A DNA stretch of 64,000 nucleotides. It comes from Deltaproteobacteria bacterium. Lineage in GTDB: Bacteria; Desulfobacterota; Binatia; UBA9968. The first letter of the stretch is position 1. The number at the start of each line of letters is the position of its first letter. Position numbers and translations under genes: made by a program. The DNA is taken from assembly GCA_016210115.1 (NCBI GenBank), contig JACQUW010000326.1, positions 131 to 64,130 of the forward strand, written 5' to 3'. The notes under the pieces were generated by a model. That model saw nothing but the letters and a program-made list of their open reading frames with translations. It was not told the origin of the DNA and ran no database searches. Positions 27,864-63,753 of this stretch are shown piece by piece.

Positions 27864-28400
27864 TCAGGATTTCTTTCCCGCCGCGGATGCTTCCAGAACC
27901 GAAAGCGCAATCGCCGGGTAGGCGCCGCACCGGCAAATATTGCCTGAAAGCCATTGGGCAATCTGCTCGCGCGTTGGCGAGGGGTTCTCCAAAAGAAGCG
28001 CCTTGGCTGCCATGATTTGCCCGGGCGTGCAGTAGCCGCACTGGGATCCGACGTTGCGGATGAACGCCTCTTGCAGCGGATCGAGTTTATCCCCTTCTGC
28101 GAGCCCTTCGATGGTGAGCACCGACTTCCCATGCGACTCAAAGGCCAGATAGCTGCACGAGCTCACCGCTCGATTGTCGACAAGAACCGTGCAAGCCCCA
28201 CATACCTCCGATTCACAAGACCGTTTGGTTCCCGTGAGCCTAAGGCGGTATCTTAGAAAATCGAGCAGCACTTCCTCGATCGGCACCTCTCCCCGCCACG
28301 GTTTTCCATTAACCGTGACCGAAAGCTCAAAAACCTGCTGCGTCTTGATGGCATCCAATTCCTTCACAGCTCCTCCATCGGCACTAAATTCGATTTTCAC
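27864..28400 (-). CDS. (2Fe-2S)-binding small subunit of a xanthine-dehydrogenase-family molybdoenzyme (S1)
   Basis: The plant-type cluster motif is SCESEVCGACTV..SC and the second cluster motif is CGYCTPG..CRCGAY. The start is uncertain: GTG 28400, or GTG 28367 with GGAGGAG upstream. Confidence 0.9.
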   Translation of the reverse strand: MKIEFSADGGAVKELDAIKTQQVFELSVTVNGKPWRGEVPIEEVLLDFLRYRLRLTGTKRSCESEVCGACTVLVDNRAVSSCSYLAFESHGKSVLTIEGLAEGDKLDPLQEAFIRNVGSQCGYCTPGQIMAAKALLLENPSPTREQIAQWLSGNICRCGAYPAIALSVLEASAAGKKS

Positions 28401-28418
28401 TCCCTGAGACGAACACGG

Positions 28419-29381
28419 CTATCGCCCGGCCTTTCTTGCGCCTTCAACAAACTGGGGATCGGTGAATCGGGACAGATTCATGGAGCGGATCTCATCTTCG
28501 CTTTTTCCCATCATCCGAAAAGCGGATTGCAACACCTTCACGTCCGGAGAAGGGTCCAATTGCAAGTATTGCTTCACGACCAGGTCGTAGGTTTTGTCCA
28601 GGAGATTGGACTCGTCGATCCGCGTGTACTTTTTGATGACCGCCGTGGTCTTTACGCGCTCCGCTTTCATGAACGAAATTGCGGCGACAAATCCCGCGGC
28701 GAACTTGTTCACCATAGCTGGTTTTTCCCGCAGCAGACGCTGCCGGGCGATGACCGCGTTCATGGGAAAGGCGATGTCCAGATTGGCAAAGTTGAGGAAT
28801 TCCTTGAACCCATATTCGATCGCCTTGAAGCTTGCCGGGTCGGCCAGGACGGCCGCATCGATGTGGCCGGTATGGATCGCCGCTAGTATTTCTCCGATTC
28901 CGCCAACCTGAATAATCTGGACCTGATTGGAAGGTATTTTCCATTGGCGCAGCGCATAGCGAAAAGCGAAGTCGTATAAGCCCCCGAATCGAGTGACGCC
29001 GATTTTTTTTCCCGCGAGATCCTGCGGGGTGCGAATATTCACTGAAGTCACAAGCGAGAAGGCGGGCTTCTTGATGGGGATGGCGATCACCCCGATCTCC
29101 GCTTTTTGCTCGATCGCGCTTAAGATGGCAGCGCCCCCCACCATCCCGAAAGCCACTTCACCCGAAAGGATCGCGGCCAAGCCGATGGGACCCGATCGGA
29201 TATAGGCAAGGTCTACATCCAGCCCCTGCCTCTCAAAAAAGCCCCGGTCCACGGCTACCCAGACAGGAGCCTGTGTTGCCGCCAGCGCAGTGTACGCGAC
29301 GTGGATTTTCTCGGCCAAAACGAGCGCCGGATTCGAAAGAATGATGAAAGCAATGAGCTTTAGAATTCCGTTGAATTTCAC
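28419..29381 (-). CDS. Periplasmic SBP, NMT1/SsuA/TauA-like
   Basis: GTG 29381 with GGGGTGG upstream gives the signal peptide VKFNGILKLIAFIILSNPALVLA. The body is paralogous to the SBPs at 41857, 44675 and 62779 (WVAVDRGFFERQGLDVDL..). The ORF extends to 29465. Confidence 0.8.
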   Translation of the reverse strand: MKFNGILKLIAFIILSNPALVLAEKIHVAYTALAATQAPVWVAVDRGFFERQGLDVDLAYIRSGPIGLAAILSGEVAFGMVGGAAILSAIEQKAEIGVIAIPIKKPAFSLVTSVNIRTPQDLAGKKIGVTRFGGLYDFAFRYALRQWKIPSNQVQIIQVGGIGEILAAIHTGHIDAAVLADPASFKAIEYGFKEFLNFANLDIAFPMNAVIARQRLLREKPAMVNKFAAGFVAAISFMKAERVKTTAVIKKYTRIDESNLLDKTYDLVVKQYLQLDPSPDVKVLQSAFRMMGKSEDEIRSMNLSRFTDPQFVEGARKAGR

Positions 29382-29468
29382 AAAACCACCCCGTTGAAAT
29401 TTTCGCTGCCAGCGGACAAACAAATTTGCAGTCCGGCCCGGTTTCTGACGATTCGATTGATACAAGGC

Positions 29469-31763
29469 TCAGATCTTACCCAGCGCCTGCAAGATCTTTT
29501 CCGCGGTAATCGGCAAAGATCTCACGCGAACCCCGATGGCGTCAAAAATCGCGTTGCCGATCGCCGGCGCAACCGTGACAATTGAAGTCTGAGACATCCC
29601 TTTCGAGCCAAACGGGCCCGGCCCGTCGCCCCTCTCCATCATGGACGAATAAAATGACCGCGGGAGATCGGCTATGACAGGCAACCGGTATTGAAAAGGA
29701 TCGCCGTTTTGCATCTGCCCCTCGCCATAGACGGTCTCTTCAAAGAGCGCGTGTCCTAACCCCATCACGGCCCCGCCGTCCATTTGTGCTTTGGCCGAAA
29801 GGTGATGCAGCGCCTTGCCCGCATCCGTGACAACCGAGAACCGGAGCACGCGCAACTCACCGGTCTCACAATCGACTTCAACTTCCGCGGCCCCGGCACT
29901 CGGGGCCCAGTGATCCATGCCGCTGAAAGCCGAATCTTTCTGCGTGGGGCGAGGCGCATGATGACCCACCGCTTGAATCACCGCATCTTCTCCTGACGCC
30001 CTCGCGACATCGCCGAAAGAGTAGCTCTCTTCGGCGTGCAACAGCCGCCCTCCGACTACTCGCCATTCTTCGGGATTTCCCCCCATTGTTCGACATGCGG
30101 TGAGAATCAGCTCTCGTTTGAGATTCTCGCACGTAATTTTTACGGCATTCCCCATCTGCATCGTTGTGCGTTGAGAATGCACGCCGATAAACGGCAGATC
30201 AACCGCCGTATCCGGCTGCCCAACCACGATCCGGCTCTGCGGAATTTCCAGCGACTTCGAGGCGATAATGCTGATGAGATTATGAACACCCTGGCCCAAA
30301 TCCGGAGCGTTGTGCTCAATCCTCACAACCCCGGAAGCATCCACGCTCGCCATGGCGGACGTCTTGGTGCCGCCCTGGGAGCCATGCCGGAGGCTAAGGG
30401 CCATCCCTTTCCCGCGCGCGACGCCGCGCCGGATTACCGGAGTCTTTTGTTCCAGCGACGAACGACCATCCCAACCCATTGCCGCGATGGCGCTCTCCAT
30501 CAGATCCAGGTAATCCGTGTCCATCAAAGGAGTTCCCTTGGCCACGAACTGGCCGCGCAGAAGAACGTTTTTTCTTCTGAATTCAGTCGGATCGATCCCC
30601 ATCTGCCGGGCTACGCTGTCAATGGCGCACTCTATTCCCCAGGTGGTTTGCACTTTGCCCGTTGCCCGGGTATGCCCCGCGGGCACTTTGTTCGTGTACG
30701 CGCAGCGGGCATGAATACTCACATGCGGAATGCGATAGCAACCCCAGGCCGAGATGACCGCGTTGTGGGTGGCGGTCGGCGCGCCGGTGGTATAAGCTCC
30801 CGTGTCCACGACGAGATCGACCTTCAAAGCCGCCAGCGTCCCGTCCGATTTCACGCCTATCTTTGCTTTGTAGACCATGGCATGGCGGGCATTCTGCCGG
30901 AAGCTAAGCTCCGCTGTGGGAATTAATCGTATCGGCCGGCCGATCTGGCGTGATAGAAACAACGTCGCGAGGATGGAGTTTGTCAGCGTTTTTGAGCCGA
31001 AGCCTCCTCCAACATAAGGAACCCGCACTCGAACGCGCCTGGGATCAACTCCAAAGATTTCCGCGATCTCTTCTGACTCGCGAAACGGAGAACTGGTGGG
31101 CGCCCAGAGGTCGATCTCATCATTCAGGAATCGGCCGAGACAACCGCCGACATTTTCCATGGGATGATGAAACATGGAAGGCGAACTATAAGTCTCTTCA
31201 AATATGCGGTCGGCTTGCTTGAATCCCTCTTCCACATCGCCCCACTCTAGCTTGTCCTCAAAAAGAAGATTGCTGCCTTTGCTCTCGTGAAGAACAGGCG
31301 CTCCGGGAGACAAAGCCTCGGTGGCATCAAAAACAGCCGGCAACACCTCGTACTCGACTTCGATCAATTCGATCGCCCGCCGGGCGGTGCGCAGATCCTC
31401 TGCGGCCACCAGGGCGACGAGCTCGCCGTCAAACCGGACCTTATCCACTGCGATAAAGCTCTCATCACTCATGGGTTTCCACGAAAGATAAGCCGTTGGG
31501 GCGGGAACCGGCAGGGCCGGGTTAAAGCCGTTCAAGTGCTCCCGATCCAGGATACCGACCACGCCCGGAAGCGCTGCGGCCCTGGATGAATCTATGGAGA
31601 GAATCCGGGCGTGCGAATACGGGCTGATCAGGGGAGCAGCGAAGGCCGTGCCCGGCAGATCCGGCAGGTCCTCAATATACTTCGCCTGTCCCGTCACCTT
31701 GTCCTTCGCATCAATACGCGGCTGCTCTTGCCAGCCGTGCACGGTCTCAGAAGTTTTGGCCAT
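29469..31763 (-). CDS. Molybdopterin-binding large subunit of a xanthine-dehydrogenase-family enzyme (L1), atypical active site
   Basis: The N-terminus is KVTGQAKYIEDLP, with VPYVGGGFGSK and the C-terminus GPGPFGSKGMSQTS..APAIGNAI. The position that is Glu in L2 (GMGE) and L3 (GIAE) is Gln here. Confidence 0.9.
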   Translation of the reverse strand: MAKTSETVHGWQEQPRIDAKDKVTGQAKYIEDLPDLPGTAFAAPLISPYSHARILSIDSSRAAALPGVVGILDREHLNGFNPALPVPAPTAYLSWKPMSDESFIAVDKVRFDGELVALVAAEDLRTARRAIELIEVEYEVLPAVFDATEALSPGAPVLHESKGSNLLFEDKLEWGDVEEGFKQADRIFEETYSSPSMFHHPMENVGGCLGRFLNDEIDLWAPTSSPFRESEEIAEIFGVDPRRVRVRVPYVGGGFGSKTLTNSILATLFLSRQIGRPIRLIPTAELSFRQNARHAMVYKAKIGVKSDGTLAALKVDLVVDTGAYTTGAPTATHNAVISAWGCYRIPHVSIHARCAYTNKVPAGHTRATGKVQTTWGIECAIDSVARQMGIDPTEFRRKNVLLRGQFVAKGTPLMDTDYLDLMESAIAAMGWDGRSSLEQKTPVIRRGVARGKGMALSLRHGSQGGTKTSAMASVDASGVVRIEHNAPDLGQGVHNLISIIASKSLEIPQSRIVVGQPDTAVDLPFIGVHSQRTTMQMGNAVKITCENLKRELILTACRTMGGNPEEWRVVGGRLLHAEESYSFGDVARASGEDAVIQAVGHHAPRPTQKDSAFSGMDHWAPSAGAAEVEVDCETGELRVLRFSVVTDAGKALHHLSAKAQMDGGAVMGLGHALFEETVYGEGQMQNGDPFQYRLPVIADLPRSFYSSMMERGDGPGPFGSKGMSQTSIVTVAPAIGNAIFDAIGVRVRSLPITAEKILQALGKI

Positions 31764-31787: not shown

Positions 31788-33248
31788 TTACTCTTTGGGA
31801 CTGACAAGAAATCCCCACTTCTTCCTCGCTCTCGCCATTCTCTCAGGATCTGTCTTGACCGCTTGCGGAAAAGAATGAATTCTCTCATACGGTTTGCAGG
31901 CATCCAAAACCAATCGGGAGCTGTGAACAGCGTTCGGCAAAACCCCGGTATCGAGAGGACTGCTGAAAGAGCGACGGATGACTTGAGCCGACCGCTCAGG
32001 GTCGCTTCGGGTGCAGATGGCCCACACCACTTCCTCCAGATCGGCCGGATCGATATCATCATCGACGACAACGACATATCTCCCGTTTCTAATCCCCACC
32101 CCGCACTGCGCGGCCACGATTCCGACCTGCGTTGCATGCCCCGGATATTTCTGGCGCACCGAGATCACGGAAAAAAGGCTCCCACCGCCTGCCTCGTGGA
32201 GCCATACGCCTTTGATTCCTGTCAGACCGGCGCTCTCTAAATAGTTCCACAAAAGAGCCGAACGGAGTAGTCCCTGCGTATGCGCTTGTGAAGAGGGTGG
32301 CTTGATCGGAGGCCGCCCAAAAATAATCGGTTCATCGCGATACAAAATGGACTTGATTCGGATAACCGGCTGGGGCGATCTCTCACTGCCGTAGTAGCCG
32401 GTCCACTCGCCGAAAGGTCCTTCGGCCAAAAGATCGCCTTCCGCCGATTCGCCCGCGATGACGCATTCAGCGCTCGCAGGAACCGGTAGGCCGGTCATGG
32501 GCTCCTCGATGGTCTCGACAGGCTCGCCTTTTATGCCGCCGGCGTAATCCAACTCACACGTGCCGGCGGGCAGATTGAGCGACGATACGATAAAAACGAG
32601 CGGATCACATCCCAAAACGACGGCGACAGGACAGGGCTTTCCCTGCTTCCACCACTGCTCCCGGTGGAGTCGCCCGTGTCTGCCGGGTTCGGCATAAAAG
32701 CCGAGAGCATCCGGGCCATGAAGCATCGCCCTGTAAGTGCCGACATTGACCCACCCATCCTCGGGAGACCGGGTAATGACGCAGCAGCCGGTTCCAATAT
32801 AGGGACCGCCATCGTGCAGGTTCCATGTGGGAGCAGGGAATCTGCGAATGTCGATGTCTTTTCCCATGACCCGGTTTTTCGTGACGGGACTACTCTCCAC
32901 CTTCACATGGGGGATCAACGAAATGGTTTTGACTTTCTCCTTCCAAAGACGAACAAAATGGACTTCATCTTCCGGAAGCGGCAGGCGCAACGACAGGGAC
33001 AGCCTCCTCCGGGATCCGAGAGCGTTTAGAAGAACGCGATATCCACCCTCTACTCCCTTCAGCCGATCGCAGAGAACCGCCGGGTTATTCCGCGAGTGGC
33101 ACACCAGCGAAGCAAGCTCTCCGATCTCGAGATCGGGTTCCACCCCATCCACACAGCGCAGCTCGCCGGCTTTTTCGACCAAGGACAGCCATTCGCGCAA
33201 GTCCTTGTAAGATTCAGCCGCGCTTATCGAGGCTTCGGTCCCGCTCAT
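31788..33248 (-). CDS. UbiD-family (prenylated-FMN-dependent) decarboxylase, paralog 1
   Basis: EGPFGEWTGYYGS is present, with a typical UbiD length and N-terminus (DLREWLSLVEKAGELRCV). The start overlaps the GntR stop (ATGA). Confidence 0.9.
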   Translation of the reverse strand: MSGTEASISAAESYKDLREWLSLVEKAGELRCVDGVEPDLEIGELASLVCHSRNNPAVLCDRLKGVEGGYRVLLNALGSRRRLSLSLRLPLPEDEVHFVRLWKEKVKTISLIPHVKVESSPVTKNRVMGKDIDIRRFPAPTWNLHDGGPYIGTGCCVITRSPEDGWVNVGTYRAMLHGPDALGFYAEPGRHGRLHREQWWKQGKPCPVAVVLGCDPLVFIVSSLNLPAGTCELDYAGGIKGEPVETIEEPMTGLPVPASAECVIAGESAEGDLLAEGPFGEWTGYYGSERSPQPVIRIKSILYRDEPIIFGRPPIKPPSSQAHTQGLLRSALLWNYLESAGLTGIKGVWLHEAGGGSLFSVISVRQKYPGHATQVGIVAAQCGVGIRNGRYVVVVDDDIDPADLEEVVWAICTRSDPERSAQVIRRSFSSPLDTGVLPNAVHSSRLVLDACKPYERIHSFPQAVKTDPERMARARKKWGFLVSPKE

Positions 33249-33937
33249 CCTGCCTTCCTTCTAAGATAGAGGATCAGGTTCTGCCTCCCCTCTTGAATAT
33301 GCTGCCGGATCAATTTTCTCGCGCCGGCAACGTTCTGTTTCATAATGCAGTCCAGTATCATTTCATGTTCTTTGTAAACTTTTTTCCCTCTTTGCGGAAA
33401 ACCCTCCAGGCTGCGCTTGAGGATCAATCGTTCGAAGATCTTCTCCAGAGCGTTTTTGATAAATCGATTGTGACAGGCCTCTGCTATTCTCAGATGAAAC
33501 TCTTGATCGGCCCGCAATCTTTCCATCGAAATCGGCTGCTGGACCGCCCGATGATATTTTATTGTGATCTCTTTTAGATCTCTTATGAGCTCCTCGTCCT
33601 TTATAGAGGAAGCTTTCTCCACCGTGTAGGCCTCAATAATCTCCCGAAACGAATATAATTCATCCGCCTCATCGACGGTGATTTCATTGAGGTAGTAGCC
33701 TTTTCTCGCAACGCTCCTGACGTAACCTTCCTGAACCAGCCGGTTGATCGCCTCTCGTACGGGCGTCGTGCTCACGCCCAGCTTTTCGCTGAGATATTCA
33801 TGTTGCAGTTTCTGTCCTGGAACGATCTGCTGCGTAAAGATCAAATCTTTGATCTTGAAATAAACCTGGTCCGTCAGGCTGAGCGAATAAGGCGACCAGC
33901 CATCTTCTTTGAATGCGGGGTAAAGAGTTTGGTCCAT
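33245..33937 (-). CDS. GntR-family transcriptional regulator (FadR/FCD subfamily)
   Basis: The winged HTH is LQHEYLSEKLGVSTTPVREAINRLVQEGYV, with a helical C-terminal FCD-like domain. ATG 33937 with GAAGG upstream is preferred over the long ORF start 34129, which would overlap the upstream gene. Confidence 0.85.
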   Translation of the reverse strand: MDQTLYPAFKEDGWSPYSLSLTDQVYFKIKDLIFTQQIVPGQKLQHEYLSEKLGVSTTPVREAINRLVQEGYVRSVARKGYYLNEITVDEADELYSFREIIEAYTVEKASSIKDEELIRDLKEITIKYHRAVQQPISMERLRADQEFHLRIAEACHNRFIKNALEKIFERLILKRSLEGFPQRGKKVYKEHEMILDCIMKQNVAGARKLIRQHIQEGRQNLILYLRRKAG

Positions 33938-33959: not shown

Positions 33960-34931
33960 TCAGGTAAGATACCCGTTTTGCCGGTAATATCTCCTGGCGC
34001 CGGCGTGCAGCGGAATTCCAAGCGCCGCGTCCTCCGTATCTCGACACAGCTTTTCCATGTCCAAAGAGCCGCTGTCGACGGGTATGAAATCTCTCCGCCT
34101 GTCGATCGCCTCGCAAATGGAATAGGCAACGCCCTCGTCCAGCCATTTATGCGTGATCAGGGGCCAGCCGCTGAAATCGATCGTCCTCACGTCTCTCGGG
34201 AGACTCTTAAAACGGGTTTTCGGTATGGCGGCGCCTTTAAAACCATACCTTTCCATCTCCCGTATGATCTTGGGTTCAAGCTCTACAAGTTCATAGCCGT
34301 TCGCGAGCGCCTCGTCTAACCATTTGGATATTCCTTCATCGAAAACCGCCCCTACTTGTCTGTTCAGGATGCTTTGCATGCGCCGGGGCGACGAGGGACG
34401 ATCGCATTCCTCTATCTCTCCGCCCCACTGCTTGATCCTTGCCGGAGAAAGCCCATAGAGAGAAAGAATCTTTGACACAGCATAGTAGGTCGCGTTATCA
34501 ACCCCGGCCAATCGAGTCGACACCCTCAGAGGAATCTTCCTGGCCGCGATCTCATAAAGAGACCTGATTTTCAAATCTCTGGAGACAGCAAAGGCAATCC
34601 TGTCCCAGGAGGGAAAACACGCCAGCGCCCGCAGAGGCAGTTTCTGCTTATAAATTCCCTTCCCCCGATACGCCATCGTAGCGATCGCCGACGGATTCAC
34701 GTAGGCGATATCCACGCGCCTCCTCGCGACCTCCAGCGGCGCCCGCATCCCACCCATGAGCCGCCCATTAACGGCCAGGCTCAAGCTCAGAGGCCTGTTG
34801 GCGCGACTGTCTTTTGAAGTGAAGGAGATCTTTAACTCGTCGCCCAAACTTGACATTTGTCTGGCGTACAACTCGGCGGCGATTTCGAGAGCTCCTTTAA
34901 CCCTGATCATGTTCGCTCTTAGTTTAACCAT
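33960..34931 (-). CDS. TAXI/NMT1-like SBP-fold protein without signal peptide
   Basis: Its internal pattern and the C-terminal LHAGARRYYRQNGYL resemble TAXI-type TRAP solute receptors. The N-terminus MVKLRANMIRVKGALEIAAEL is not hydrophobic. Confidence 0.6.
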   Translation of the reverse strand: MVKLRANMIRVKGALEIAAELYARQMSSLGDELKISFTSKDSRANRPLSLSLAVNGRLMGGMRAPLEVARRRVDIAYVNPSAIATMAYRGKGIYKQKLPLRALACFPSWDRIAFAVSRDLKIRSLYEIAARKIPLRVSTRLAGVDNATYYAVSKILSLYGLSPARIKQWGGEIEECDRPSSPRRMQSILNRQVGAVFDEGISKWLDEALANGYELVELEPKIIREMERYGFKGAAIPKTRFKSLPRDVRTIDFSGWPLITHKWLDEGVAYSICEAIDRRRDFIPVDSGSLDMEKLCRDTEDAALGIPLHAGARRYYRQNGYLT

Positions 34932-56682: not shown

Positions 56683-56751
56683 CGACGTTCCACCTAAGCT
56701 CAGGGCCTGCAGCATTTTGCCCTGCTTGAAAATGGCAAATCGCAACATATC

Positions 56752-58116
56752 TCACCACTTGACCCGATCCGCCCCCGGCACCCGAATCCGCTCGTAGCGC
56801 CATCGCTCTTCGCCCAACGGAATCGTCGCATCGATCCCGAGCTTCGAGGTTTGGTTGGGAAGCGACGCCGAAGGGTCCAGAGGCGCTCCAATCATTGTCG
56901 GGAATATATGAACGTCTCGATGAGGCTGCGCCCGTGTATTGATCGCCCAGGCAACCTGTTGCGGATCGAAGACGTCAATGTCCTCGTCAACCACCACGCA
57001 GTATTTGACCAGCGAATTGCCGCTGAGGACGTGCGATATGACACTCCATACTTCCGTCTCGAGCCGCTTGCGGAGCGCTATCACAGCCTGGTAGACGCCC
57101 CCATCGGCAACCGCCCAGTTGACTGCCACAATCTCAGGATGCACCCGGCGCGCGTCCTCGGCGATGGCCACGGTTCGCGGGAGCCACATCAACGTCTGAT
57201 CCTCAGTCATGGGAACGCCGGTCAGGGCATCCTGAAACAGGGGATTTTGCCGCGTTGTGATGGCCCTTACTTCCATGACGGGCGCCGTTCGGGTGCCGCT
57301 ATAACAGCCGGTAAATTCTCCGAACGGTCCTTCCTCTTCTCGCACTCCGGACAGAAGCACTCCTTCGAGGACGACCTCCGCCACCGGGACATCGACGTCG
57401 ATGGTAAGACAGCGATAAACCTCTAAAGGCCGGCCGAGGAGGGCGCCCGCAATACCGGTTTTATCGATTTGATGGGAGACCCGCGCGGTGGCAGCGATCG
57501 TAAACGCGGGAGGGCCACCCAGCACCACCGCAATTTCAGTCTCGACTCCGCGTTCTTCGTTGGCGAGAAGAGTTCGGGTGATGCGCCGCTGGTTCGCGCC
57601 CCAAAACCCCAGGCGCCGCGGCCCCTTCACCTGCATGCGGTGAATACCCAAATGCTGTATCTCGGATCTTGCGTCTTTAACCACCTCGACTCCGGCGGTT
57701 ATGTAAGGAGCCGCATCGAGTTCGGAGTGAGTCGTAATCGGCAAGCGAGCCAGGTCAACATCCGCCCCTTCCCACCTGATCGCCTGGTGCGGCGCTGCAC
57801 CTGAAACCTGCGCAGGAGCAACGGGTTTACCAATCGCTTCCCGATAGCGTTCTATTGCTTCCTTCTGATCGCATCCCAGCGCGCGGAGTAACCGTCGCAG
57901 CACGCCGTAGCCGCCAGCGACAACTCGCCAGTTCGGATAGCCCGCAACCTGCTCGAATATGAAGGCGGGTCCCTTCAGGTCGCAACTGCGACGGGCGTAT
58001 GCTGAAATTTCGAAGCGAGGATCAACCGGTTCCTTGATTCGGATTAAGTCTCCCTCCCTCTCGATCAGGCCGAGGAATTCCCGATAATCCTCTGCAGCGG
58101 GAACATCCGGCTTCAT
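56752..58116 (-). CDS. UbiD-family decarboxylase, paralog 3 (divergent)
   Basis: EGPFGEFTGCYSG is present, with the N-terminus YREFLGLIEREGDLIRIKEPVD. ATG 58116 overlaps the M20 stop by 1 nt (TGATG). Confidence 0.9.
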   Translation of the reverse strand: MKPDVPAAEDYREFLGLIEREGDLIRIKEPVDPRFEISAYARRSCDLKGPAFIFEQVAGYPNWRVVAGGYGVLRRLLRALGCDQKEAIERYREAIGKPVAPAQVSGAAPHQAIRWEGADVDLARLPITTHSELDAAPYITAGVEVVKDARSEIQHLGIHRMQVKGPRRLGFWGANQRRITRTLLANEERGVETEIAVVLGGPPAFTIAATARVSHQIDKTGIAGALLGRPLEVYRCLTIDVDVPVAEVVLEGVLLSGVREEEGPFGEFTGCYSGTRTAPVMEVRAITTRQNPLFQDALTGVPMTEDQTLMWLPRTVAIAEDARRVHPEIVAVNWAVADGGVYQAVIALRKRLETEVWSVISHVLSGNSLVKYCVVVDEDIDVFDPQQVAWAINTRAQPHRDVHIFPTMIGAPLDPSASLPNQTSKLGIDATIPLGEERWRYERIRVPGADRVKW

Positions 58117-59384
58117 CAACGCTCCGCTCCCTTCCCAAGAAAATCAAAAGCGACGGCGGCATAAAGGCATGCCGTCTGCACAATCTCTTCCACGTTGAAG
58201 CGCTCGTTCGGGACGTGCCCTCCGCTGCCGTCGTGTCCGAGAACTACGCTCGGAATCCCGCCGCGCTGGAGATGACGGCAATCGTTGAAACTCCCCTTAA
58301 ACACCGGATACGGTTCGGCGCAGATCCCCAGCTCGCGCAGCGCGTTGATCGAGATCTGCACGATTTCCGCTTTGACGTCTTGATAGAAGGGCTCGAAATC
58401 GAAGGCCACCTCCATCGTAAGCCCGTCCGCTTTCAGGCCCTGAAGCAGTTTTTCCACCTGCGCCCGGACCTCCCCCCCTGTGACTCCCGGCGGATAGCGG
58501 AGATCCAGCTCAGCCACTGCCGTATCGGCGACCACGTTCCGTTTCGTTCCCCCGCGGAATGTGCCGACATTCACGGTCGTGTGTCCGAGAGACCAGAGGT
58601 AGAGATCTACCGGCACGTTGCGCTTTTTAGCGTTCTCCTCGTGAAAGGGACGAGACAGCTCTATAATCTCTCTTACCTCAGCCGGCAGATCCGGCTCCCA
58701 TGATTCCAGCTCACGAAAGCGCGGCAACAGGGCCGCCAGACGCTCGACGGCATTATCCCCTTCGAACGGCCGCGCGGCATGCGCCGAACGTCCCGTAAGC
58801 TTGAGGTCAACGCCAAGCGAGCCTTTGTTCGCGACACCGTAGTGGCGGCCGGCGCCTTCTCCTACGATGACGGCGTCCGCCTGCACGAGATTCTGCTCGA
58901 CCAACCATTTGGTTCCATCCTCGCCGCCGGTTTCCTCATCCGGCACAAGCATGACCGTCCAGCTTCCCGGGAGCGGCATGTCCTTTTCTTTGAGGATACG
59001 GGCGAGCACCATCGCAGCGGCAATTTTGCTTTTCATATCCGCTGATCCCCTGCCCCAGAGCTCTCCATCGATGATCTCACCGCCGTAGGGGTCCACCCTC
59101 CACGTGCTTAGATTCCCGGCCGGCACCACATCGAGATGACCGTTGAACGCGAGCTTCCGCGGTCCTTTTCCCTGCAAGGTGGCTATCAAGCTGATCCGGC
59201 CGGTCACAGGCTCGTAGCGCTGGACCGGAATTCCCGCATCGCGAAAGTAAGCCTCTGCGAAGCCGGCAATTTCAGTCATGTCACAGGGCGGATTCTCGGT
59301 TTTTATGCGGACCAGCGCCTGCGTCAATTGCACAAGCTCATCGCGCCGTTTTTTTACCTCGGAAATGAGCGCGGATTTGTCCAT
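58116..59384 (-). CDS. M20-family metallopeptidase/deacylase (ArgE/DapE/CPG2-like)
   Basis: FNGHLDVVP, GRGSADMKS and VPDEETGG are present. ATG 59384 overlaps the upstream stop (TAATG). The long ORF extension to 59588 is unsupported. Confidence 0.85.
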   Translation of the reverse strand: MDKSALISEVKKRRDELVQLTQALVRIKTENPPCDMTEIAGFAEAYFRDAGIPVQRYEPVTGRISLIATLQGKGPRKLAFNGHLDVVPAGNLSTWRVDPYGGEIIDGELWGRGSADMKSKIAAAMVLARILKEKDMPLPGSWTVMLVPDEETGGEDGTKWLVEQNLVQADAVIVGEGAGRHYGVANKGSLGVDLKLTGRSAHAARPFEGDNAVERLAALLPRFRELESWEPDLPAEVREIIELSRPFHEENAKKRNVPVDLYLWSLGHTTVNVGTFRGGTKRNVVADTAVAELDLRYPPGVTGGEVRAQVEKLLQGLKADGLTMEVAFDFEPFYQDVKAEIVQISINALRELGICAEPYPVFKGSFNDCRHLQRGGIPSVVLGHDGSGGHVPNERFNVEEIVQTACLYAAVAFDFLGKGAER

Positions 59385-61138
59385 TACTCCAAAGCTCCAA
59401 CTGCTGCGTCGGCCGTTTCCACAGCCTCCTTCAGGCAGTCTGCGATCCAGTTGCGATTCCGGATGAGCCTGGTCCGCAGCAGCCTGGTCTCCAACGCTTC
59501 GGGGTCCATTCGAGACAATTCTTCGACCGGATAGAGCGAGGGAAACACGGTTCGCAACGTAGTAAGCCCATAGAGATCCTGGTCCCACTTTCCGTTGATC
59601 GCGGAGCCGGGAGCGTTAAGCGCGCGCGAGAGGCGCATGAGCGAGCGGTTGGTTGACAAGACCTTCGGCGAAAGGGGCCATCCCTCCTTTTCTCGCAAAG
59701 CTTGCACTCTTTTCTCCAGGTCTTTGGCAAGAGAATCGAACCGGCGGGCGCGATCCTGCAACTCGCCGAGACCAAATTCTTTGGGCGCCTTGTCGGCAAG
59801 CTCATCGAGACGCTTTACCATCTCCTGGCCGACGGGCGTAAAATCATACGGGAGAACCGGTTCGTTGCTGAGGCGCCCGACCAATCCGACGTAGACAGCC
59901 AGATCCTTTTGGAGAACTTTCATATCGACCGTATCGAGTGTCATCTCGATGCTGTGATGCCACGGCCCAAGGTCAGCGCCATTCCAGGCTTTCACCTGCT
60001 CCTCGGAATAGGCCATCCGCGGCGACAACGTCGGAACTCCAAGACCGACGAATGACATGTCCCCTATGCGCGTTAGTCGCACGCGGCGGCAGTGAACTCC
60101 CGGAAGGAGCTTTGCCTCGACCTCTTTATGGAAACGCAGAAGCTCAGACGAGCTTCGGGTGTTATATTCGGTCGCGCCGACGAGCCCGGGAGAGTCGACG
60201 TTGATGTAGGTCAGAGCTTTCCGGTCGAGCTCGTCCCAAAAGTGATCGCAAAACCATGTGGAACCCGTCATGGTGCCTGTCTCATGGCCCGACCATAACG
60301 TAAACCAGACGCTGCGCTTTACCTTATCTCGATGTTTGGCGAATGCCCGCGCGAGCTCCAAAACTCCGGAGTTCCCTATGGCGTTGCAGGAAACCCCACC
60401 ACCCCAGGCGTCCATGTGCCCTCCGATAAGGATGGCCTTGTCCGGCTCTTCCGAGCCCTCGAGCCGCCCGACCGTAATTTGTGTAGTGCGCCACTCCTCG
60501 GGTGAATGCGCTGACATCCGGACGCGGACGGGGCCACGCTTGCATAGATCGCGCAGATACTCTCCTGTGGCGCGCGATACCGTAAGGCAAGGTGTGGACG
60601 GCATGTTCTTGATCGTTTCCGGTGTCGGGTTTCCCCACACGGCTTTCACTGAGCCATAGGCGATGATCTCGCAATCCGACGGGCCCCAGTTCATCATCAC
60701 GTGGCCGATGGCCCCCCTGGCGGAGCCGATCCGCTCCTTTTCCTGGCGCGGTGGAGAATACGAAAGCTCGGAAAGCGTAATCTTTCCCCGCACGTCTTTT
60801 CCCTCGTAGTCCTTCTCGGTCCCCGCGCCGACGAAAACCAGATCGCCTTCGATGCCCTTTTCATCGGTGGAGCGGATATGGCAGAAGGGAAGGCAGCGAA
60901 AATCTCGCGTCTCGGGCGTGAGTAACTTTAGAGACGCTTCTCCGGGGAAGCTGACCAGCGCGTCCAGGTCATAGACGGTCGCCGGCACCCCGACCGCTTC
61001 CATCGCATCCCGAACGTAGTGCGCCATCCATTTTAGCTCGGGGCTCCCCGCCAGCCTTTGCGGAACCTTTTTCGTGATGTTTACGATATGCTCGTGGGCC
61101 CGATCGGCCGAAATCTCATCCAAAATTTCTTTGATCAT
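59384..61138 (-). CDS. M28-family metallopeptidase with PA (protease-associated) insert
   Basis: GGHMDAW, WSGHETG and a PA-like insert (DLVFVGAGTEKDYEGKDVRGKITL) are present. ATG 61138 is preceded by GGGAGGA. Confidence 0.8.
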   Translation of the reverse strand: MIKEILDEISADRAHEHIVNITKKVPQRLAGSPELKWMAHYVRDAMEAVGVPATVYDLDALVSFPGEASLKLLTPETRDFRCLPFCHIRSTDEKGIEGDLVFVGAGTEKDYEGKDVRGKITLSELSYSPPRQEKERIGSARGAIGHVMMNWGPSDCEIIAYGSVKAVWGNPTPETIKNMPSTPCLTVSRATGEYLRDLCKRGPVRVRMSAHSPEEWRTTQITVGRLEGSEEPDKAILIGGHMDAWGGGVSCNAIGNSGVLELARAFAKHRDKVKRSVWFTLWSGHETGTMTGSTWFCDHFWDELDRKALTYINVDSPGLVGATEYNTRSSSELLRFHKEVEAKLLPGVHCRRVRLTRIGDMSFVGLGVPTLSPRMAYSEEQVKAWNGADLGPWHHSIEMTLDTVDMKVLQKDLAVYVGLVGRLSNEPVLPYDFTPVGQEMVKRLDELADKAPKEFGLGELQDRARRFDSLAKDLEKRVQALREKEGWPLSPKVLSTNRSLMRLSRALNAPGSAINGKWDQDLYGLTTLRTVFPSLYPVEELSRMDPEALETRLLRTRLIRNRNWIADCLKEAVETADAAVGALE

Positions 61139-61169
61139 CAAATCCTCCCTTGTATGTATAGACTATATA

Positions 61170-61422: not shown

Positions 61423-62454
61423 TTACTGCGCGCCAAGGACCTCCCTGAGCTTTGCGACCAGAGAGGGATTGAGCTGAAAAAAGCCCGCGGCGGTCTTTTC
61501 CAGCTCTTCTCCCGTCATCGGGTCGATGTTCAAATTAGACTTTTTCGCATCCGCCAAAAAATCCCTATCGTGCATGGTATCCGAAAAGGACCGCCGCAGG
61601 ACCTGGACCAATTCTTTTGGCGTGCCAGGCGGAAAACCATAGGCGAAAATCATGTTGCTGATGTCATGGATGCCCGATTGAATGAGCTGGCGCGCCTCAT
61701 CGGTCTTGGCAAAATCGATTGCCAGCGGAATTCCAGGCAGGTCTCGGAGAGGCTTCGGCAATAACTGCAGCACCACCACCGCGTCGCCCGATTCGATTGC
61801 TCTTCTCCAGGTCGCTTTGATCGATTCCCAGGTCCAACATCCTCCGGCTACTTCCCCTCCTTCAGCGGCGAGCCGAATCTCGGCCGTGCCTTTGTAGCCC
61901 GAGACAAGCTGGATCGGCAGCCCCAGAGCGGTCTGAAGTATTCTTATGTGATCGTAAACTACAGACCCGGGAGCGATCCCGCCTATTTTCACCGGCGTCT
62001 TCGAGGCGATCCATTTTTCCATGCTCGTGATGCCGCTCCTCCTCGTAAAAGCGCAAACAGGATTGTCCTTGACGACCACGCCCACGTATTCAAAGCGACG
62101 GGCGTCGTATTCAACCCCCGATCGTTTCAGAATCTGCGCCACGATCAGAGGGCCCACCTGGAGGTTACCCAGCGTGAGGCCGTCGGGTTTGGCGATTTTG
62201 TAAACATAGTTGGCGGAAATGAGCCCCCCGGCCCCGGTCATATTCTCGACGACGATAGTGGGATTGCCCGGAATATGCCTTCCCAAATGTCGCGCCAGAG
62301 TCCGAGAGTAAGTATCGAAGCCGCCGCCGGCCGCAAACCCGACGATGATCTTGAGAGTCTTACCTTTAAAGAACTCCTGGGCAAACACAGGGAGATCGGC
62401 CGTGAGCCCAAAAATGGCCATTGCGACGATGAGGGTGCTAATCTTGTTGCGCAT
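61423..62454 (-). CDS. Tripartite tricarboxylate transporter substrate-binding protein (Bug/TctC family)
   Basis: It has a signal peptide, and KIIVGFAAGGGFDTYSRTLARHLGRHIPGNPTIVVENMTGAGGLISANY is typical of the Bug family. The start is ATG 62454 or GTG 62463. Confidence 0.88.
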   Translation of the reverse strand: MRNKISTLIVAMAIFGLTADLPVFAQEFFKGKTLKIIVGFAAGGGFDTYSRTLARHLGRHIPGNPTIVVENMTGAGGLISANYVYKIAKPDGLTLGNLQVGPLIVAQILKRSGVEYDARRFEYVGVVVKDNPVCAFTRRSGITSMEKWIASKTPVKIGGIAPGSVVYDHIRILQTALGLPIQLVSGYKGTAEIRLAAEGGEVAGGCWTWESIKATWRRAIESGDAVVVLQLLPKPLRDLPGIPLAIDFAKTDEARQLIQSGIHDISNMIFAYGFPPGTPKELVQVLRRSFSDTMHDRDFLADAKKSNLNIDPMTGEELEKTAAGFFQLNPSLVAKLREVLGAQ

Positions 62455-62484
62455 GTTTCTCACCTTGTGAGATGACTCCTCCCT

Positions 62485-62712
62485 GCGTCATTCCGCCGAA
62501 AGCACTTCCTCCGAGCGGCCAGCAGGGCATCCGCAGCTTCGAAGTCGGAACTGGACCCCCGATAAAAACGTTCGGGGGTGACGTTCGATGCGGAAACGAC
62601 CTCGAGTGTTCTCGAAACGCGTCTCTTTGGTCGTCATTCCTCCGAAAGCCTACTTCTGTTTGTTAAAGCCAGGCCTCTCCCTTCGTCGTTCCCGCGAAAG
62701 CGGGAACCCAGG
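62485..62712. repeat. Array of REP-like palindromic elements
   Basis: The elements are GCGTCATTCCGCCGAAAGC (62485-62503), CTGGACCCCCGATAAAAACGTTCGGGGGTGACG (62551-62583, 7-bp stem), GGTCGTCATTCCTCCGAAAGCC (62629-62650) and CGTCGTTCCCGCGAAAGCGGGAACCCAGG (62684-62712). The last matches the element at 44547-44574 in the opposite orientation. Confidence 0.7.
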
Positions 62713-62778
62713 CTCTTTCTCCCGTCTTCTTACGCCAATCATTCGCAGCTCTCGTGCAATGCTCACCTCCAACTCCCT

Positions 62779-63753
62779 TCATCGTAGATCCTTGCCAAAG
62801 ACTTTTTCCAGGAACTTTTCCTTGGCGAGCCGATCGACGAAGCTGTTATCGATGAACTGTTCCGCAAGCGCCTCCGGCTTTACATCTTTGATATTCGAGG
62901 ACTCCAAAACCGTTGCAACACTGCGGGTGTCCACCTGCGGGATTCGATCCGTGTACTTTCGGGCGATCTCATAGCTCTCTTCCAAAAACGGCCGATCCGT
63001 GCGGTTGAGATACCTGGAAAGCATTTTGATCGTCCTTTCCTTTTCATGCACCAGGGCACCCGCCCCTTCGACCAGCGCCCGGAGAACGCGCAGAACCGTG
63101 TCCGGATTCTCGCGGGCGTATTTGCGCGTGGTCGTAAACCAGTTATACCCGAGCGGGATATCGAGGTCGGCCGCGTTCAGGAGGGCTCGCGCAGCGCCTT
63201 TAGGCCGCACCAGGGTCATAAAGCCGGCGACGACTTTCTGTTCAAAGGCGGCCTGTCTCTGCGGCACACCGCCCACCGCACGCAACGACACATCTTTTTC
63301 CAGGCCGAATTTCCGCAGCACAAGAACGGTTACGGCGTGGCCCGAGGAACCAAAGCTGCTGATGGCCAGAGACTTTCCCCTCAGGTCCTCGACTTTATTG
63401 ATTTCGGGCTGCACGTAAAGCGTGACGGGCGGCCGGTTCATGCCCGAGGCAACGGCAACGATGTCGGCGCCGCGGGCCGCCGCCGTGACAACGCCGGTCG
63501 CTCCGGTGCCCGCGAAATGCAGGCTTCCACCCAACAGGGCCTGAACGTTCGTCCCGCTGGAGGAGATGTAAATAAGTTGCACGTCAAGGCCATGTTTCTT
63601 AAACGCGCCAATCTCCTCCGCCATCCAGGTGCTGGCGGACGAAGGCGAGATGGCGGAGTAAGAAATGATAACGGGCGCCGCCCGCGTCGAATCGACCCAG
63701 AGGAAAACTGCTAGAACCAGAACAAGTGCCGCTTTCAAAACGAAACGATTCAT
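62779..63753 (-). CDS. Periplasmic SBP, NMT1/SsuA/TauA-like
   Basis: ATG 63753 with GGAGG upstream gives MNRFVLKAALVLVLAVFLWVDSTRA. It is a paralog of the other NMT1-like SBPs. The ORF extension to 63942 runs through a repeat hairpin. Confidence 0.8.
   Translation of the reverse strand: MNRFVLKAALVLVLAVFLWVDSTRAAPVIISYSAISPSSASTWMAEEIGAFKKHGLDVQLIYISSSGTNVQALLGGSLHFAGTGATGVVTAAARGADIVAVASGMNRPPVTLYVQPEINKVEDLRGKSLAISSFGSSGHAVTVLVLRKFGLEKDVSLRAVGGVPQRQAAFEQKVVAGFMTLVRPKGAARALLNAADLDIPLGYNWFTTTRKYARENPDTVLRVLRALVEGAGALVHEKERTIKMLSRYLNRTDRPFLEESYEIARKYTDRIPQVDTRSVATVLESSNIKDVKPEALAEQFIDNSFVDRLAKEKFLEKVFGKDLR

Follow-up and report, generated by a model that had tools for sequence, protein, structure and literature searches.

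The window analyzed here, a stretch of 64,000 nucleotides from a Deltaproteobacteria bacterium (GTDB lineage Bacteria; Desulfobacterota; Binatia; UBA9968; GenBank assembly GCA_016210115.1, contig JACQUW010000326.1, positions 131 to 64,130 of the forward strand), carries 28 consecutive minus-strand genes at 27864-63753, as delimited by open reading frame (ORF) listing and start-codon inspection. We propose, with a probability of about 0.5, that this array forms a modular catabolic island with which an uncultured bacterium degrades carboxylated N-heteroaromatics (polycarboxylates of pyridine, pyrazine/pteridine or related type), the route starting without the help of oxygenases. Gene content, conserved blocks, nearest homologs and active-site residues were read from the DNA and its relatives, and from these we infer which substrate is used, what reactions it undergoes and in what order. 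A logic of hydroxylation, hydrolysis and decarboxylation is suggested by recurring pairings of UbiD decarboxylases with molybdenum (Mo) enzymes, of other decarboxylase folds with Mo enzymes, of an amidohydrolase (Amhy2) with UbiD and RidA, and of a cupin with HyuAB and an amidase, and an N-containing substrate is favored because RidA, the isochorismatase-type amidase, HyuAB and the M20 and M28 proteins handle nitrogen. Such a route would be of a kind already known, Mo-hydroxylase-initiated catabolism of aromatic heterocycles with non-oxidative decarboxylations, with one unusual component, the large subunit MoL3, and as a whole it would be one not yet described.

In the order of transcription, the array encodes two solute-binding proteins (SBPs), SBP_a and a TctC-type protein, followed by M28, M20, UbiD1, RidA, Amhy2 and MoL1-FAD1-FeS1; then a PhtD-like protein, FAD2-FeS2-MoL2, a class II aldolase-fold protein, NMT1_b, UbiD2, NMT1_c, SBP6 and a bicupin; and finally a HyuA-HyuB fusion, an isochorismatase-family protein, a TAXI-like protein, a GntR/FCD regulator, UbiD3, MoL3, NMT1_d and FeS3 (Table 1). 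The corresponding Pfam inventory comprises three xanthine-oxidase-family large subunits, three [2Fe-2S] subunits and two FAD subunits, three complete UbiD proteins, one Amidohydro_2, one cupin, the fused HyuA/HyuB of 1315 aa, and isochorismatase, M20, M28, RidA, class II aldolase and GntR/FCD families. An earlier first-pass annotation, made from the sequence alone, had listed the same 28 co-oriented genes and their families, which ORF listing and Pfam bore out, and had seen no CoA ligase, Rieske oxygenase or flavin monooxygenase; the Pfam scan likewise found none of these in the array. The genes are mostly tightly spaced, 10 junctions overlapping by 1-19 nt, and internal gaps above 240 nt (242-401 nt) occur at five junctions only, after SBP_a, TctC, UbiD1, MoL2 and NMT1_b; another gap of more than 240 nt follows FeS3 at the array end. 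As the source contig stops 213 bases past the end of the window, the 5' end of the array may be cut.

Related loci show the array to be mosaic, made of at least three blocks that recur and are repeatedly associated with xanthine-oxidase-family enzymes, SBPs and GntR regulators. The first block, M28-M20-UbiD1-RidA-Amhy2, is found at 76-91% identity in a Logan assembly (L053), in the order TctC-TctB-TctA-GntR-M28 (80%)-M20 (76%)-UbiD1 (79%)-RidA (91%)-Amhy2 (81%), continued by a complete NMT1-type ATP-binding cassette (ABC) transporter and two Mo enzymes approximately 41% identical to MoL1/MoL2, and a JGI contig reads GntR-UbiD-RidA-Amhy2-luciferase-like-MoL-FAD-FeS-ABC transporter-FAD-MoL. Fourteen collinear genes from PhtD to GntR are present at 62-85% identity in a 220-kb JGI contig (L110), namely PhtD (62%)-FAD2 (63%)-FeS2 (78%)-MoL2 (77%)-aldolase (73%)-NMT1_b (85%)-UbiD2 (82%)-MoL2' (65%)-UbiD3 (72%)-MoL3 (76%)-FAD-FeS3 (72%)-NMT1_d (68%)-GntR (73%), and the locus L001 carries FeS1 (76%)-PhtD paralog-PhtD (76%)-SBP-permease-aldolase (71%)-NMT1_b (77%)-UbiD2 (82%). 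The run UbiD3 (80%)-MoL3 (81%)-FAD-FeS3 (84%) recurs in an NCBI metagenome-assembled genome (MAG; L109), and the JGI contig 3300043331 extends it as UbiD3-MoL3-FAD-FeS-SBP-SBP-SBP_bac_6-cupin-HyuA. A third JGI contig reads MoL-FAD-FeS-PhtD-cupin-SBP_bac_6-…-FAD-FeS-MoL-aldolase-SBP, and a block SBP-cupin-hydantoinase also recurs in relatives. Altogether 51 metagenome loci hold MoL3-FAD-FeS3, usually in the order MoL2'-MoL3-FAD-FeS3-SBPs-cupin-…-PhtD paralog; FeS3 orthologs (65-84%) follow MoL3 in relatives, and cupin orthologs (54-79%) lie near MoL3 sets in nine metagenome loci. These relatives are soil, sediment and groundwater MAGs labelled 'Deltaproteobacteria' or Binatia. The clustering is more than chance: metagenome contigs that are independent of one another repeat the blocks with their gene order kept and with 62-91% protein identity.

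In our judgment it is improbable that the array arose by accretion of unrelated operons (a hydantoin/lactam unit, aldehyde- or purine-type oxidoreductases, UbiDs of other roles) with no common pathway, brought together only because accessory catabolic genes gather in this part of the genome. In fact, co-orientation is not specific to the array and runs into housekeeping genes, since all credible genes from 9.6 to 64 kb lie on the minus strand and the neighbors beyond the array encode a sigma-54 activator, Ppx, TopA, DprA, Der and Era; the five internal gaps split the array, a search for an operator shared between gaps found none, and PhtD-like genes are found in many other contexts. Block order also varies: the NMT1_c-SBP6-cupin-HyuAB-isochorismatase-TAXI block sits between UbiD2 and GntR-UbiD3 in the window and not in L110, the relative with the best synteny, which instead has an extra large subunit and a FAD subunit at that position. 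Nevertheless, the same combinations of UbiD, PhtD-like, aldolase-like and cupin genes with Mo genes recur in many independent contigs, and accretion would not lead one to expect the 14 collinear genes of L110. The first-pass annotation had raised against itself the case of unrelated operons that are not co-conserved; large parts of the array are co-conserved, but as a mosaic, and one array need not mean one pathway.

Table 1. Genes of the array in transcription order, with the intergenic insert, and the evidence for each assignment.
Feature	Coordinates	Strand	Evidence
SBP_a, secreted NMT1/SsuA-type SBP	62779..63753	-	Pfam NMT1, 80.7 bits; signal-like N-terminus
TctC-family (tripartite tricarboxylate transporter) SBP, secreted	61423..62454	-	Pfam TctC, 32.8 bits; signal-like N-terminus
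M28 metallopeptidase, cytoplasmic	59384..61138	-	Pfam M28
M20 ArgE/DapE-type deacylase	58116..59384	-	Pfam M20 and M20_dimer
UbiD1, prFMN-type decarboxylase, HmfF-like	56752..58116	-	UbiD_N/UbiD/UbiD_C; EGPFGE
401-nt intergenic insert, UbiD1/RidA	56351..56751	-	period-7 tandem array and long hairpin
RidA-family enamine/imine deaminase	55961..56350	-	Pfam Ribonuc_L-PSP, 109 bits
Amhy2, Amidohydro_2 of DHLI beta-subunit type	55109..55945	-	full-length homology to lumazine-type loci
MoL1, xanthine-oxidase-family Mo large subunit, canonical active site	52807..55116	-	Pfam
FAD1, FAD subunit of set 1	51938..52810	-	Pfam FAD_binding_5 and CO_deh_flav_C
FeS1, [2Fe-2S]x2 subunit of set 1	51454..51945	-	Pfam Fer2_2/Fer2; 8 Cys
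PhtD-like cytoplasmic SBP-fold decarboxylase candidate	50346..51380	-	9jp7 homology; no signal peptide; no Pfam match
FAD2, FAD subunit of set 2	49406..50284	-	Pfam
FeS2, [2Fe-2S]x2 subunit of set 2	48916..49413	-	Pfam
MoL2, Mo large subunit, canonical active site	46625..48934	-	Pfam
Class II aldolase/adducin-fold protein, candidate decarboxylase or other metal-dependent lyase/oxygenase	45684..46382	-	Pfam Aldolase_II
NMT1_b, secreted NMT1-type SBP	44675..45661	-	Pfam; signal-like N-terminus
UbiD2, prFMN-type decarboxylase, PhdA-like	42921..44378	-	PDB 7pda; EGPFGE
NMT1_c, secreted NMT1-type SBP	41857..42828	-	Pfam; signal-like N-terminus
SBP6, secreted SBP_bac_6-type SBP	40722..41783	-	Pfam
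Bicupin, candidate ring-cleaving dioxygenase	39554..40633	-	Pfam Cupin_2; HxH...H site in C-terminal barrel
HyuAB, fused HyuA-HyuB ATP-dependent hydantoinase/oxoprolinase/caprolactamase-family protein, 1315 aa	35520..39467	-	four Pfam domains, 104-376 bits
Isochorismatase-family hydrolase, amidase candidate	34936..35523	-	Pfam, 106 bits
TAXI/NMT1_3-like SBP-fold protein without signal peptide	33960..34931	-	Pfam NMT1_3, 43 bits; no hydrophobic N-terminus
GntR/FadR-type (FCD) regulator	33245..33937	-	Pfam GntR and FCD
UbiD3, prFMN-type decarboxylase, PhdA-like	31788..33248	-	PDB 7pda; EGPFGE
MoL3, Mo large subunit of a small clade without catalytic Glu and Gln	29469..31763	-	alignments
NMT1_d, secreted NMT1-type SBP	28419..29381	-	Pfam
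FeS3, [2Fe-2S]x2 subunit of set 3	27864..28400	-	Pfam; 8 Cys

The early hydroxylations would be the work of the first two Mo sets, in which all the hallmarks of the xanthine oxidase family are found: a hammerhead and two molybdenum-cofactor-binding domains, FeS and FAD subunits, the catalytic Glu (KGIAEPG in MoL1, KGMGEGG in MoL2) and the active-site Gln (STQ in both), each FeS subunit of the array having eight conserved Cys. The best solved relative of MoL1 is the alpha subunit of 4-hydroxybenzoyl-CoA reductase (4-HBCR, HcrCAB; PDB 1rm6), with 463 bits against 341 for the next match, and 4-HBCR alpha is also the top NCBIfam match of MoL1, MoL2 and MoL3 (647, 531 and 427 bits, cut-off 995), the PDB having been queried with MoL1 and MoL3 so that the closeness of MoL2 rests on NCBIfam. 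None of them is placed within 4-HBCR by these scores, the beta models reaching 96 and 71 bits against a cut-off of 405; moreover, the array differs from the HcrCAB system in having no CoA-thioester-forming enzymes and no Fe-S insert in the FAD subunits. The extra Cys cluster of the 4-HBCR FAD subunit carries a [4Fe-4S] center, and FAD1 has two Cys and FAD2 four scattered ones. Likewise, the large subunits fall short of xanthine dehydrogenase (XdhA/PucD/XdhB; 594, 509 and 391 bits for MoL1, MoL2 and MoL3, cut-off 780) and of aerobic CO dehydrogenase (no AYRC loop; 195-406 bits against CoxL cut-offs of 950-991). On these values and the UbiD scores given below, the outcome that the first-pass annotation had named as damaging to it, in which CO oxidation, ubiquinone biosynthesis or purine salvage would be the nearest functions, is not indicated.

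The third set is the unusual one. At the column of the catalytic Glu, occupied by Glu in HcrA, KdhL, CoxL and QorL (HMMER alignments; reference residues bovine E1261 and Q767), MoL3 has Gln721 (KGMSQTS), and at the column of the Gln that contacts Mo=O it has Ser (PTSSPF). The Gln is found in 36/36 MoL3 orthologs from the 51 metagenome loci, with S, N, D, A or T at the other column, and in a library of representatives at 50% identity it is kept by all those of about ten clusters at least 48% identical to MoL3 which cover the C-terminus, while 135 relatives more distant from MoL3 have Glu. The loss of the catalytic Glu and the active-site Gln is thus a conserved trait of the clade and not decay. 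The best solved relative of MoL3 is again 4-HBCR alpha (329 bits, 227 for the next), and MoL3 departs from canonical xanthine-oxidase-family hydroxylases in having neither the catalytic Glu nor the active-site Gln and no adjacent FAD subunit in the window. The first-pass annotation had counted three Mo-hydroxylases; the families agree with Pfam, but hydroxylase activity of the third is put in question by the absence of both residues. E-to-Q variants of characterized xanthine-oxidase-family members are not known to be active, and a literature search for members of the family without the catalytic Glu found no report.

The surroundings of MoL3 are also altered in the window. The NMT1_d gene occupies the slot of the FAD subunit, relatives having MoL3-FAD-FeS3-SBP, and MoL2', the canonical paralogous large subunit which precedes MoL3 in most of the 51 loci (ahead of MoL3 or of UbiD3-MoL3), is missing; the loss of MoL2' and of the set-3 FAD subunit points to a recent rearrangement of the island. 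A PhdA-like UbiD gene stands immediately ahead of MoL3 in three contigs, L109, L110 and one from JGI, which were retrieved by way of UbiD3 orthologs. A bolder view, which we advance tentatively and hold to be possible rather than probable, is that UbiD3-MoL3-FAD-FeS takes part in an undescribed, largely oxygenase-free mineralization of polycarboxylated N-heteroaromatics (or benzene polycarboxylates) by widespread uncultured soil bacteria, with a new kind of xanthine-oxidase-family enzyme. On that view MoL3, in which Gln replaces the otherwise universal Glu and the active-site Gln is lost, would have to work by another mechanism; the substrate itself might, for instance, assist the hydroxylation of a carboxylated ring, or the reaction might be coupled to the UbiD partner.

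The decarboxylations are expected to fall in part to the three UbiD proteins, all of which keep the catalytic E-x4-E motif as EGPFGE and pass the TIGR00148 subfamily cut-off. UbiD1 has as best PDB match the 2,5-furandicarboxylate decarboxylase HmfF (6h6x/6h6v; E 2e-79, 271 bits), and UbiD2 and UbiD3 match over their full length the phenazine-1-carboxylate decarboxylase PhdA of Mycolicibacterium fortuitum (7pda; E 5e-113 and 382 bits, E 1e-105 and 358 bits, respectively), within a family in which more than 7000 uncharacterized proteins are found at E<1e-30. Scores for UbiD proper (155-190 bits against 788) and for menaquinone decarboxylase (186-217 against 496) are far below the cut-offs. The array resembles the hmf furan pathway (HmfF/HmfG decarboxylase and the furoyl-CoA dehydrogenase HmfABC) in that UbiD1 is nearest to HmfF and a UbiD stands beside a xanthine-oxidase-family enzyme, but it has no furoyl-CoA synthetase or other CoA ligase, UbiX/HmfG or HmfH oxidase; in a similar way, UbiD2 and UbiD3 differ from PhdA in having no adjacent PhdB/UbiX, and their neighbors are Mo enzymes and not phenazine genes. 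A literature search combining Binatota and UbiD found no report.

The best NCBIfam match of UbiD2 and UbiD3 is the beta subunit of phenylphosphate carboxylase (310 and 276 bits), which raises the question of an anaerobic system working in the reverse sense, with UbiDs carboxylating rings and HcrA-like Mo enzymes reductively removing hydroxyl groups, as in phenol or benzene activation or 4-hydroxybenzoyl-CoA reduction. The nearness of the large subunits to HcrA and the absence from MoL3 of the base needed for hydroxylation would agree with this. We nonetheless find it very unlikely, given that the scores lie well below the cut-offs (469 and 995 bits), that the FAD subunits do not have the extra Cys cluster of 4-HBCR, that the window holds no CoA ligase, phenylphosphate synthase or benzoyl-CoA reductase, and that a putative dioxygenase, the cupin, suggests aerobic or microaerobic use.

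The closest precedent for the upstream block is the lumazine/pterin cluster I of Cupriavidus sp. LA-1 (LuDH, DHLI, XCDC/UbiX), in which a xanthine-oxidase-family dehydrogenase of three subunits uses water to hydroxylate C7 and C6, 6,7-dihydroxylumazine isomerase (DHLI), an amidohydrolase_2 enzyme, contracts the ring to xanthine-8-carboxylate, and a UbiD enzyme then decarboxylates it (Doi et al., 2025; PMC12391406). Amhy2 (278 aa) is 36-38.5% identical, over 97-99% of the length and with E down to 1e-65, to paired amidohydrolases (L056 and L057 among them) on plasmids of Ralstonia, Paracoccus, Ensifer, Burkholderia and others, where the neighborhood reads LysR-amidohydrolase x2-UbiD-UbiX-GTP-binding protein-purine permease, with a Mo oxidoreductase. 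The ligands of the DHLI beta subunit are His6, His8 and Asp235 (PMC12391406), and Amhy2 starts with MIIDGHIH, its His6, His8 and Asp226 aligning with the ligands of the beta-type copies; the coincidence of the two His residues was at first dismissed, HxH being generic to amidohydrolases, and was kept once full-length homology had been shown. The same three enzyme families thus stand side by side in both systems, and they share a logic of water-derived hydroxylation, ring amide hydrolysis or contraction, and decarboxylation. The window differs in having no DHLI alpha subunit, GTP-binding chaperone, UbiX, pterin deaminase or purine permease, and its block adds M28, M20 and RidA; near Amhy2 there is no second Amidohydro_2, CobW-type GTPase or UbiX, and UbiD alone is found. 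The GTP-binding chaperone is reported to accompany DHLI beta in every case, and the alpha subunit is also absent from Actinomycetota clusters (PMC12391406). The likeness of Amhy2 and UbiD1 to the LA-1 proteins was measured through the plasmid loci of the same architecture, and the identity is too low for orthology. By analogy, the upstream block would work like the lumazine pathway, but we do not file it as a member, since the defining companions are missing and the identity is modest.

These comparisons make Amhy2 a candidate ring amide hydrolase or isomerase and not a decarboxylase. The first-pass annotation had taken it for an amidohydrolase_2 decarboxylase on the precedent of PicC, an assignment that is not upheld: a PicC/LigW/ACMSD-type decarboxylase was rejected because the LigW match reaches 33 bits over residues 69-158 only and the protein has 278 aa against 340-373 aa, and Amhy2 belongs with the DHLI genes. 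Its remark that the combination matches no single described pathway also passed over the nearest precedent, in which a Mo dehydrogenase, an amidohydrolase_2 isomerase and UbiD act together (PMC12391406). As for its five decarboxylase candidates, the three UbiDs and the PhtD-like protein stand and the amidohydrolase does not, and the class II aldolase-fold protein is a candidate it had missed. On a side note, a 54% Amhy2 homolog lies among five xanthine-oxidase-family large-subunit genes in L055 (ENA KELL22 scaffold_701), which also holds M20, RidA, two short-chain dehydrogenases/reductases, a luciferase-like protein and an Amidohydro_1 gene, so that close relatives are not the only ones in which this amidohydrolase subfamily goes together with Mo enzymes; a 56%-identical homolog was also found in an unrelated context.

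One may ask whether M28-M20-UbiD1-RidA-Amhy2-MoL1/FAD1/FeS1 is a true pteridine pathway, for lumazine, pterin or a folate breakdown product, equivalent in function to Cupriavidus cluster I, with the rest of the array separate. In its favor, Amhy2 keeps the Zn ligands of its DHLI-type homologs, the three enzyme families are those of cluster I, the block is conserved independently of the other modules, and the best PDB matches of M28 are NAALADase-L and glutamate carboxypeptidase II. Glutamate carboxypeptidase II acts as a folate hydrolase. The M28 match is, however, weak and confined to the catalytic domain (49-53 bits), identity to DHLI-type genes is only 36-38%, UbiD1 scores 271 bits with HmfF but 195 bits with the UbiDs encoded at lumazine-type loci (32-34% identical), and the alpha paralog, chaperone, UbiX, deaminase and permease are all missing from the window, so that we consider a dedicated pteridine pathway unlikely. 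A folate-hydrolase role for the M28/M20 pair was also set aside, M28 being weakly like glutamate carboxypeptidase II and M20 being ArgE/DapE-like (215.6 bits on NCBIfam TIGR01910, cut-off 217.6) and not CPG2-like.

Two further decarboxylase candidates are of folds known from phthalate pathways. The PhtD-like protein matches 4,5-dihydroxyphthalate decarboxylase (PhtD/Pht5; 9jp7) over its full length with E 1.4e-43 and is 33-35% identical to annotated plasmid homologs (34% to the annotated enzyme of Novosphingobium KA1); an exact-sequence look-up gave no record for it. The aldolase-fold protein scores 116.7 bits on NCBIfam PhtC (3,4-dihydroxyphthalate decarboxylase; cut-off 200) and matches in the PDB Mlr6791 and NovR, and equally pyruvic oxime dioxygenase and fuculose-1-phosphate aldolase, and it is best described from these matches as a candidate decarboxylase, not assigned. 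Homologs of both folds are thus present, both cytoplasmic, but the array has no Rieske phthalate dioxygenase or dihydrodiol dehydrogenase, and the Pfam scan found no phthalate dioxygenase or dehydrogenase context for the PhtD-like gene.

The two folds bring in a serious rival, to which we give a low probability: that the substrates are carbocyclic, phthalate isomers or benzene polycarboxylates such as charcoal or humic oxidation products, with HcrA-like Mo enzymes hydroxylating the electron-poor benzene ring with water, PhtD-/PhtC-like proteins decarboxylating the (di)hydroxyphthalates so formed, UbiDs taking off further carboxyl groups and the bicupin cleaving a gentisate- or protocatechuate-type product. 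It would account for the nearness of all three large subunits to 4-HBCR alpha and for the TctC-type SBPs, with TctABC in L053, and in Sinorhizobium and Phyllobacterium a homolog of the bicupin sits with PhtD-like, aldolase-like and TctC genes and no Mo enzymes. We know of no precedent for a Mo enzyme that hydroxylates a free benzene carboxylate. Furthermore, RidA, Amhy2, the isochorismatase-type amidase, HyuAB and M20/M28 would have no obvious role on nitrogen-free substrates, and the UbiDs are nearest to furan- and phenazine-acid enzymes.

The rhizobial loci are also of interest in themselves. A full-length bicupin homolog, 41-42% identical, occurs in Sinorhizobium terangae (L112; pCB3126_1, 905-945 kb) and on a plasmid of Phyllobacterium zundukense (L111); in the former, a second cupin gene and genes for TctC, a PhtD-like (33%) and an aldolase-like (30%) protein lie within 25 kb of it, the PhtD-like match in the latter is weaker (28%, partial), and neither locus holds Mo enzymes. 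These cultured rhizobia offer a genetic handle on the cupin/PhtD-like pair.

Ring cleavage and amide opening would be served by the next group of proteins. The bicupin has two WxHQHFN-containing barrels and an HYH motif visible in the sequence, and a single-sequence AlphaFold model (pLDDT 34.5) is too low in confidence for use. The cupin fold named by the first-pass annotation holds, and its likeness to gentisate dioxygenase rests on a PDB match of 24.7 bits and an NCBIfam match of 36 bits. HyuAB carries the HyuA N, A and C domains together with HyuB, as expected for its family, and scores below the cut-offs on the caprolactamase models (alpha 570 bits, cut-off 1000; beta 211 bits). The isochorismatase-family gene overlaps it by 4 nt and is translationally coupled, its product having weak matches to BiuH (50 bits) and RutB (36 bits).

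NicF and PicF are isochorismatase-type amidases, and the nic and pic pathways share with the route proposed for the array a first hydroxylation by a Mo enzyme, followed by decarboxylation, a ring-cleaving dioxygenase and such an amidase, with regulators of similar types. They differ from it in that the array has no NicC/PicB monooxygenase, NicX-type dioxygenase or maleate isomerase and Amhy2 is not PicC-like, and the multiple UbiDs of the array have no counterpart in nic/pic. Nor does the dipicolinate dip cluster match, as its first step is taken not by a Mo enzyme but by a monooxygenase that depends on O2 and needs no Mo cofactor (PMC11472048).

Eight of the 28 proteins have the SBP fold, six of them with signal-like N-termini, a feature that the first-pass annotation had not mentioned. 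The six secreted SBPs are four of NMT1/SsuA type, one SBP_bac_6 and one TctC, and they may be orphans that serve transporters encoded elsewhere; at the matching positions, relatives encode TctBA or a full ABC transporter. In particular, no TctA/TctB accompanies TctC in the array and L053 has TctC-TctB-TctA at the equivalent place. Homologs of SBP_a (40-41%) lie near two MoL3 loci (L075 and L080), and an SBP_bac_6 gene adjoins the cupin in two JGI contigs. The TAXI-like protein could, like the PhtD-like one, be not a transport component, and in its case an enzyme or a cytoplasmic ligand sensor.

Taken together, the proposed route on carboxylated N-heteroaromatics would run as follows. Secreted TctC-, NMT1- and SBP_bac_6-type SBPs would capture anionic substrates, the membrane parts being encoded elsewhere, and MoL1/FAD1/FeS1 and FAD2/FeS2/MoL2 would insert water-derived hydroxyl groups beside the ring N or at electron-poor carbons, giving pyridone or lactam tautomers. 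Carboxyl groups labilized by the hydroxyl could then be removed by the cofactor-independent PhtD-like and class-II-aldolase-like decarboxylases, and less activated ring carboxylates by UbiD1, UbiD2 and UbiD3 with prenylated flavin mononucleotide (prFMN). Amhy2 is predicted to hydrolyze the ring amide of the hydroxylated heterocycle, which would open or contract the ring and provide a new carboxylate for UbiD1; RidA would clear enamine or imine products and M20/M28 deacylate fragments. The bicupin may cleave the remaining hydroxylated ring, and HyuAB with the coupled isochorismatase-type amidase may open and deamidate cyclic amide or carbamoyl products, with expression presumably under one or more GntR/FadR-type repressors.

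Several observations weigh against this route. Blocks are shuffled among relatives, and several substrates or pathways may thus be juxtaposed; identities are too low for substrate calls (Amhy2 36-38%, UbiD1 32-34%, PhtD-like 33-35%), and the array proteins all score below the NCBIfam equivalog cut-offs. 4-HBCR, an enzyme of carbocyclic rings, is nearest to each of the three large subunits, canonical hydroxylation by MoL3 is doubtful because its catalytic Glu and Gln are absent, and the presence of both dihydroxyphthalate-decarboxylase folds fits benzene polycarboxylates too. No UbiX/Flavoprotein-family match was found among the 48 scanned ORFs of the 64-kb window, though it may lie elsewhere in the genome, and the 36-kb array holds no permease or ATPase for its SBPs. 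The bicupin matches gentisate dioxygenase (3bu7) and MabB weakly, the latter model having a cut-off of 650 bits. Finally, PhtD-like genes at 40-60% identity occur in 48 loci of species-representative genomes, mostly Binatia or 'Deltaproteobacteria' MAGs with Thermodesulfobacteriota, Gaiellaceae and others, with no Mo enzymes within 10 kb; as the family at this identity sits in other contexts, this profile scan is uninformative on the island. The first-pass annotation had suggested catabolism of heteroaromatic polycarboxylates, and the nearest homologs (HmfF, PhdA and 9jp7), which are enzymes of (hetero)aromatic acids, speak for it in part, the substrate class remaining a matter of interpretation.

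Scans for promoter and terminator consensus sequences gave no more matches than expected from shuffled sequence, with no minus-strand sigma-70 sites within the array, and tRNA and Rfam scans of the window gave no match. The UbiD1-RidA insert, a junction of only 27 nt in L053, contains a TRF array of TGGTCAA x10.6 (56412-56487). It also holds an imperfect inverted repeat of 34 nt, with arms at 56544-56577 and 56649-56682, which folds into a long hairpin of -82 kcal/mol (z -5.3). Only two gaps, those preceding RidA and the PhtD-like gene, share a TTGACYA-type unit, in opposite orientations (11 matches, 2 expected), and none of the 112 related loci fetched contains it; a search of the array gaps for a common operator turned up only genome-specific period-7 arrays, which those loci likewise do not have. 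The tandem arrays may be regulator sites, a means of promoter spacing or a genome-specific repeat class. In intergenic regions, short tandem arrays also lie at 51391-51466, 1054-1078, 1164-1181, 1319-1344, 1507-1543, 3862-3891 and 16142-16176, with period 7 at most sites and period 8 at the last, and unit sequences that vary by site.

Outside the array, a plus-strand cluster at 15-9605 appears dedicated to cyclic-nucleotide signaling. It includes two ABC_sub_bind SBPs, a fusion of a response regulator with an adenylate/guanylate cyclase (3971-5068), a class-II phosphodiesterase-like metallo-beta-lactamase on the strand opposite to the rest (5088-5888) and an 889-aa fusion of a cNMP-binding domain with a Na/sulfate-symporter-type transporter (6936-9605); a 586-aa ORF at 1443-3203 has no Pfam match. 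Between the array and era lies a 218-aa ORF (26851-27507) with no Pfam or NCBIfam match, whose GSGMGR motif may mark a methyltransferase.

The pairing of Mo-hydroxylases with decarboxylases is known for nicotinate, picolinate, furans and lumazine (2025), and the island combines elements of several of these, with five decarboxylase candidates from three folds. Its lineage recurs in soil, sediment and groundwater metagenomes, and no cultured representative was among the relatives found. The conserved blocks are within reach of experiment, new UbiD and SBP-fold decarboxylases would be of biocatalytic interest, and the MoL3 clade is a natural, conserved molybdoenzyme variant without a residue deemed essential for the mechanism of its family. 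If the proposed logic is true, the island would indicate how electron-poor polycarboxylated heteroaromatics, possibly derived from cofactor or pigment residues, spore or plant pyridine acids or oxidized pyrogenic nitrogen, are degraded without oxygenases.

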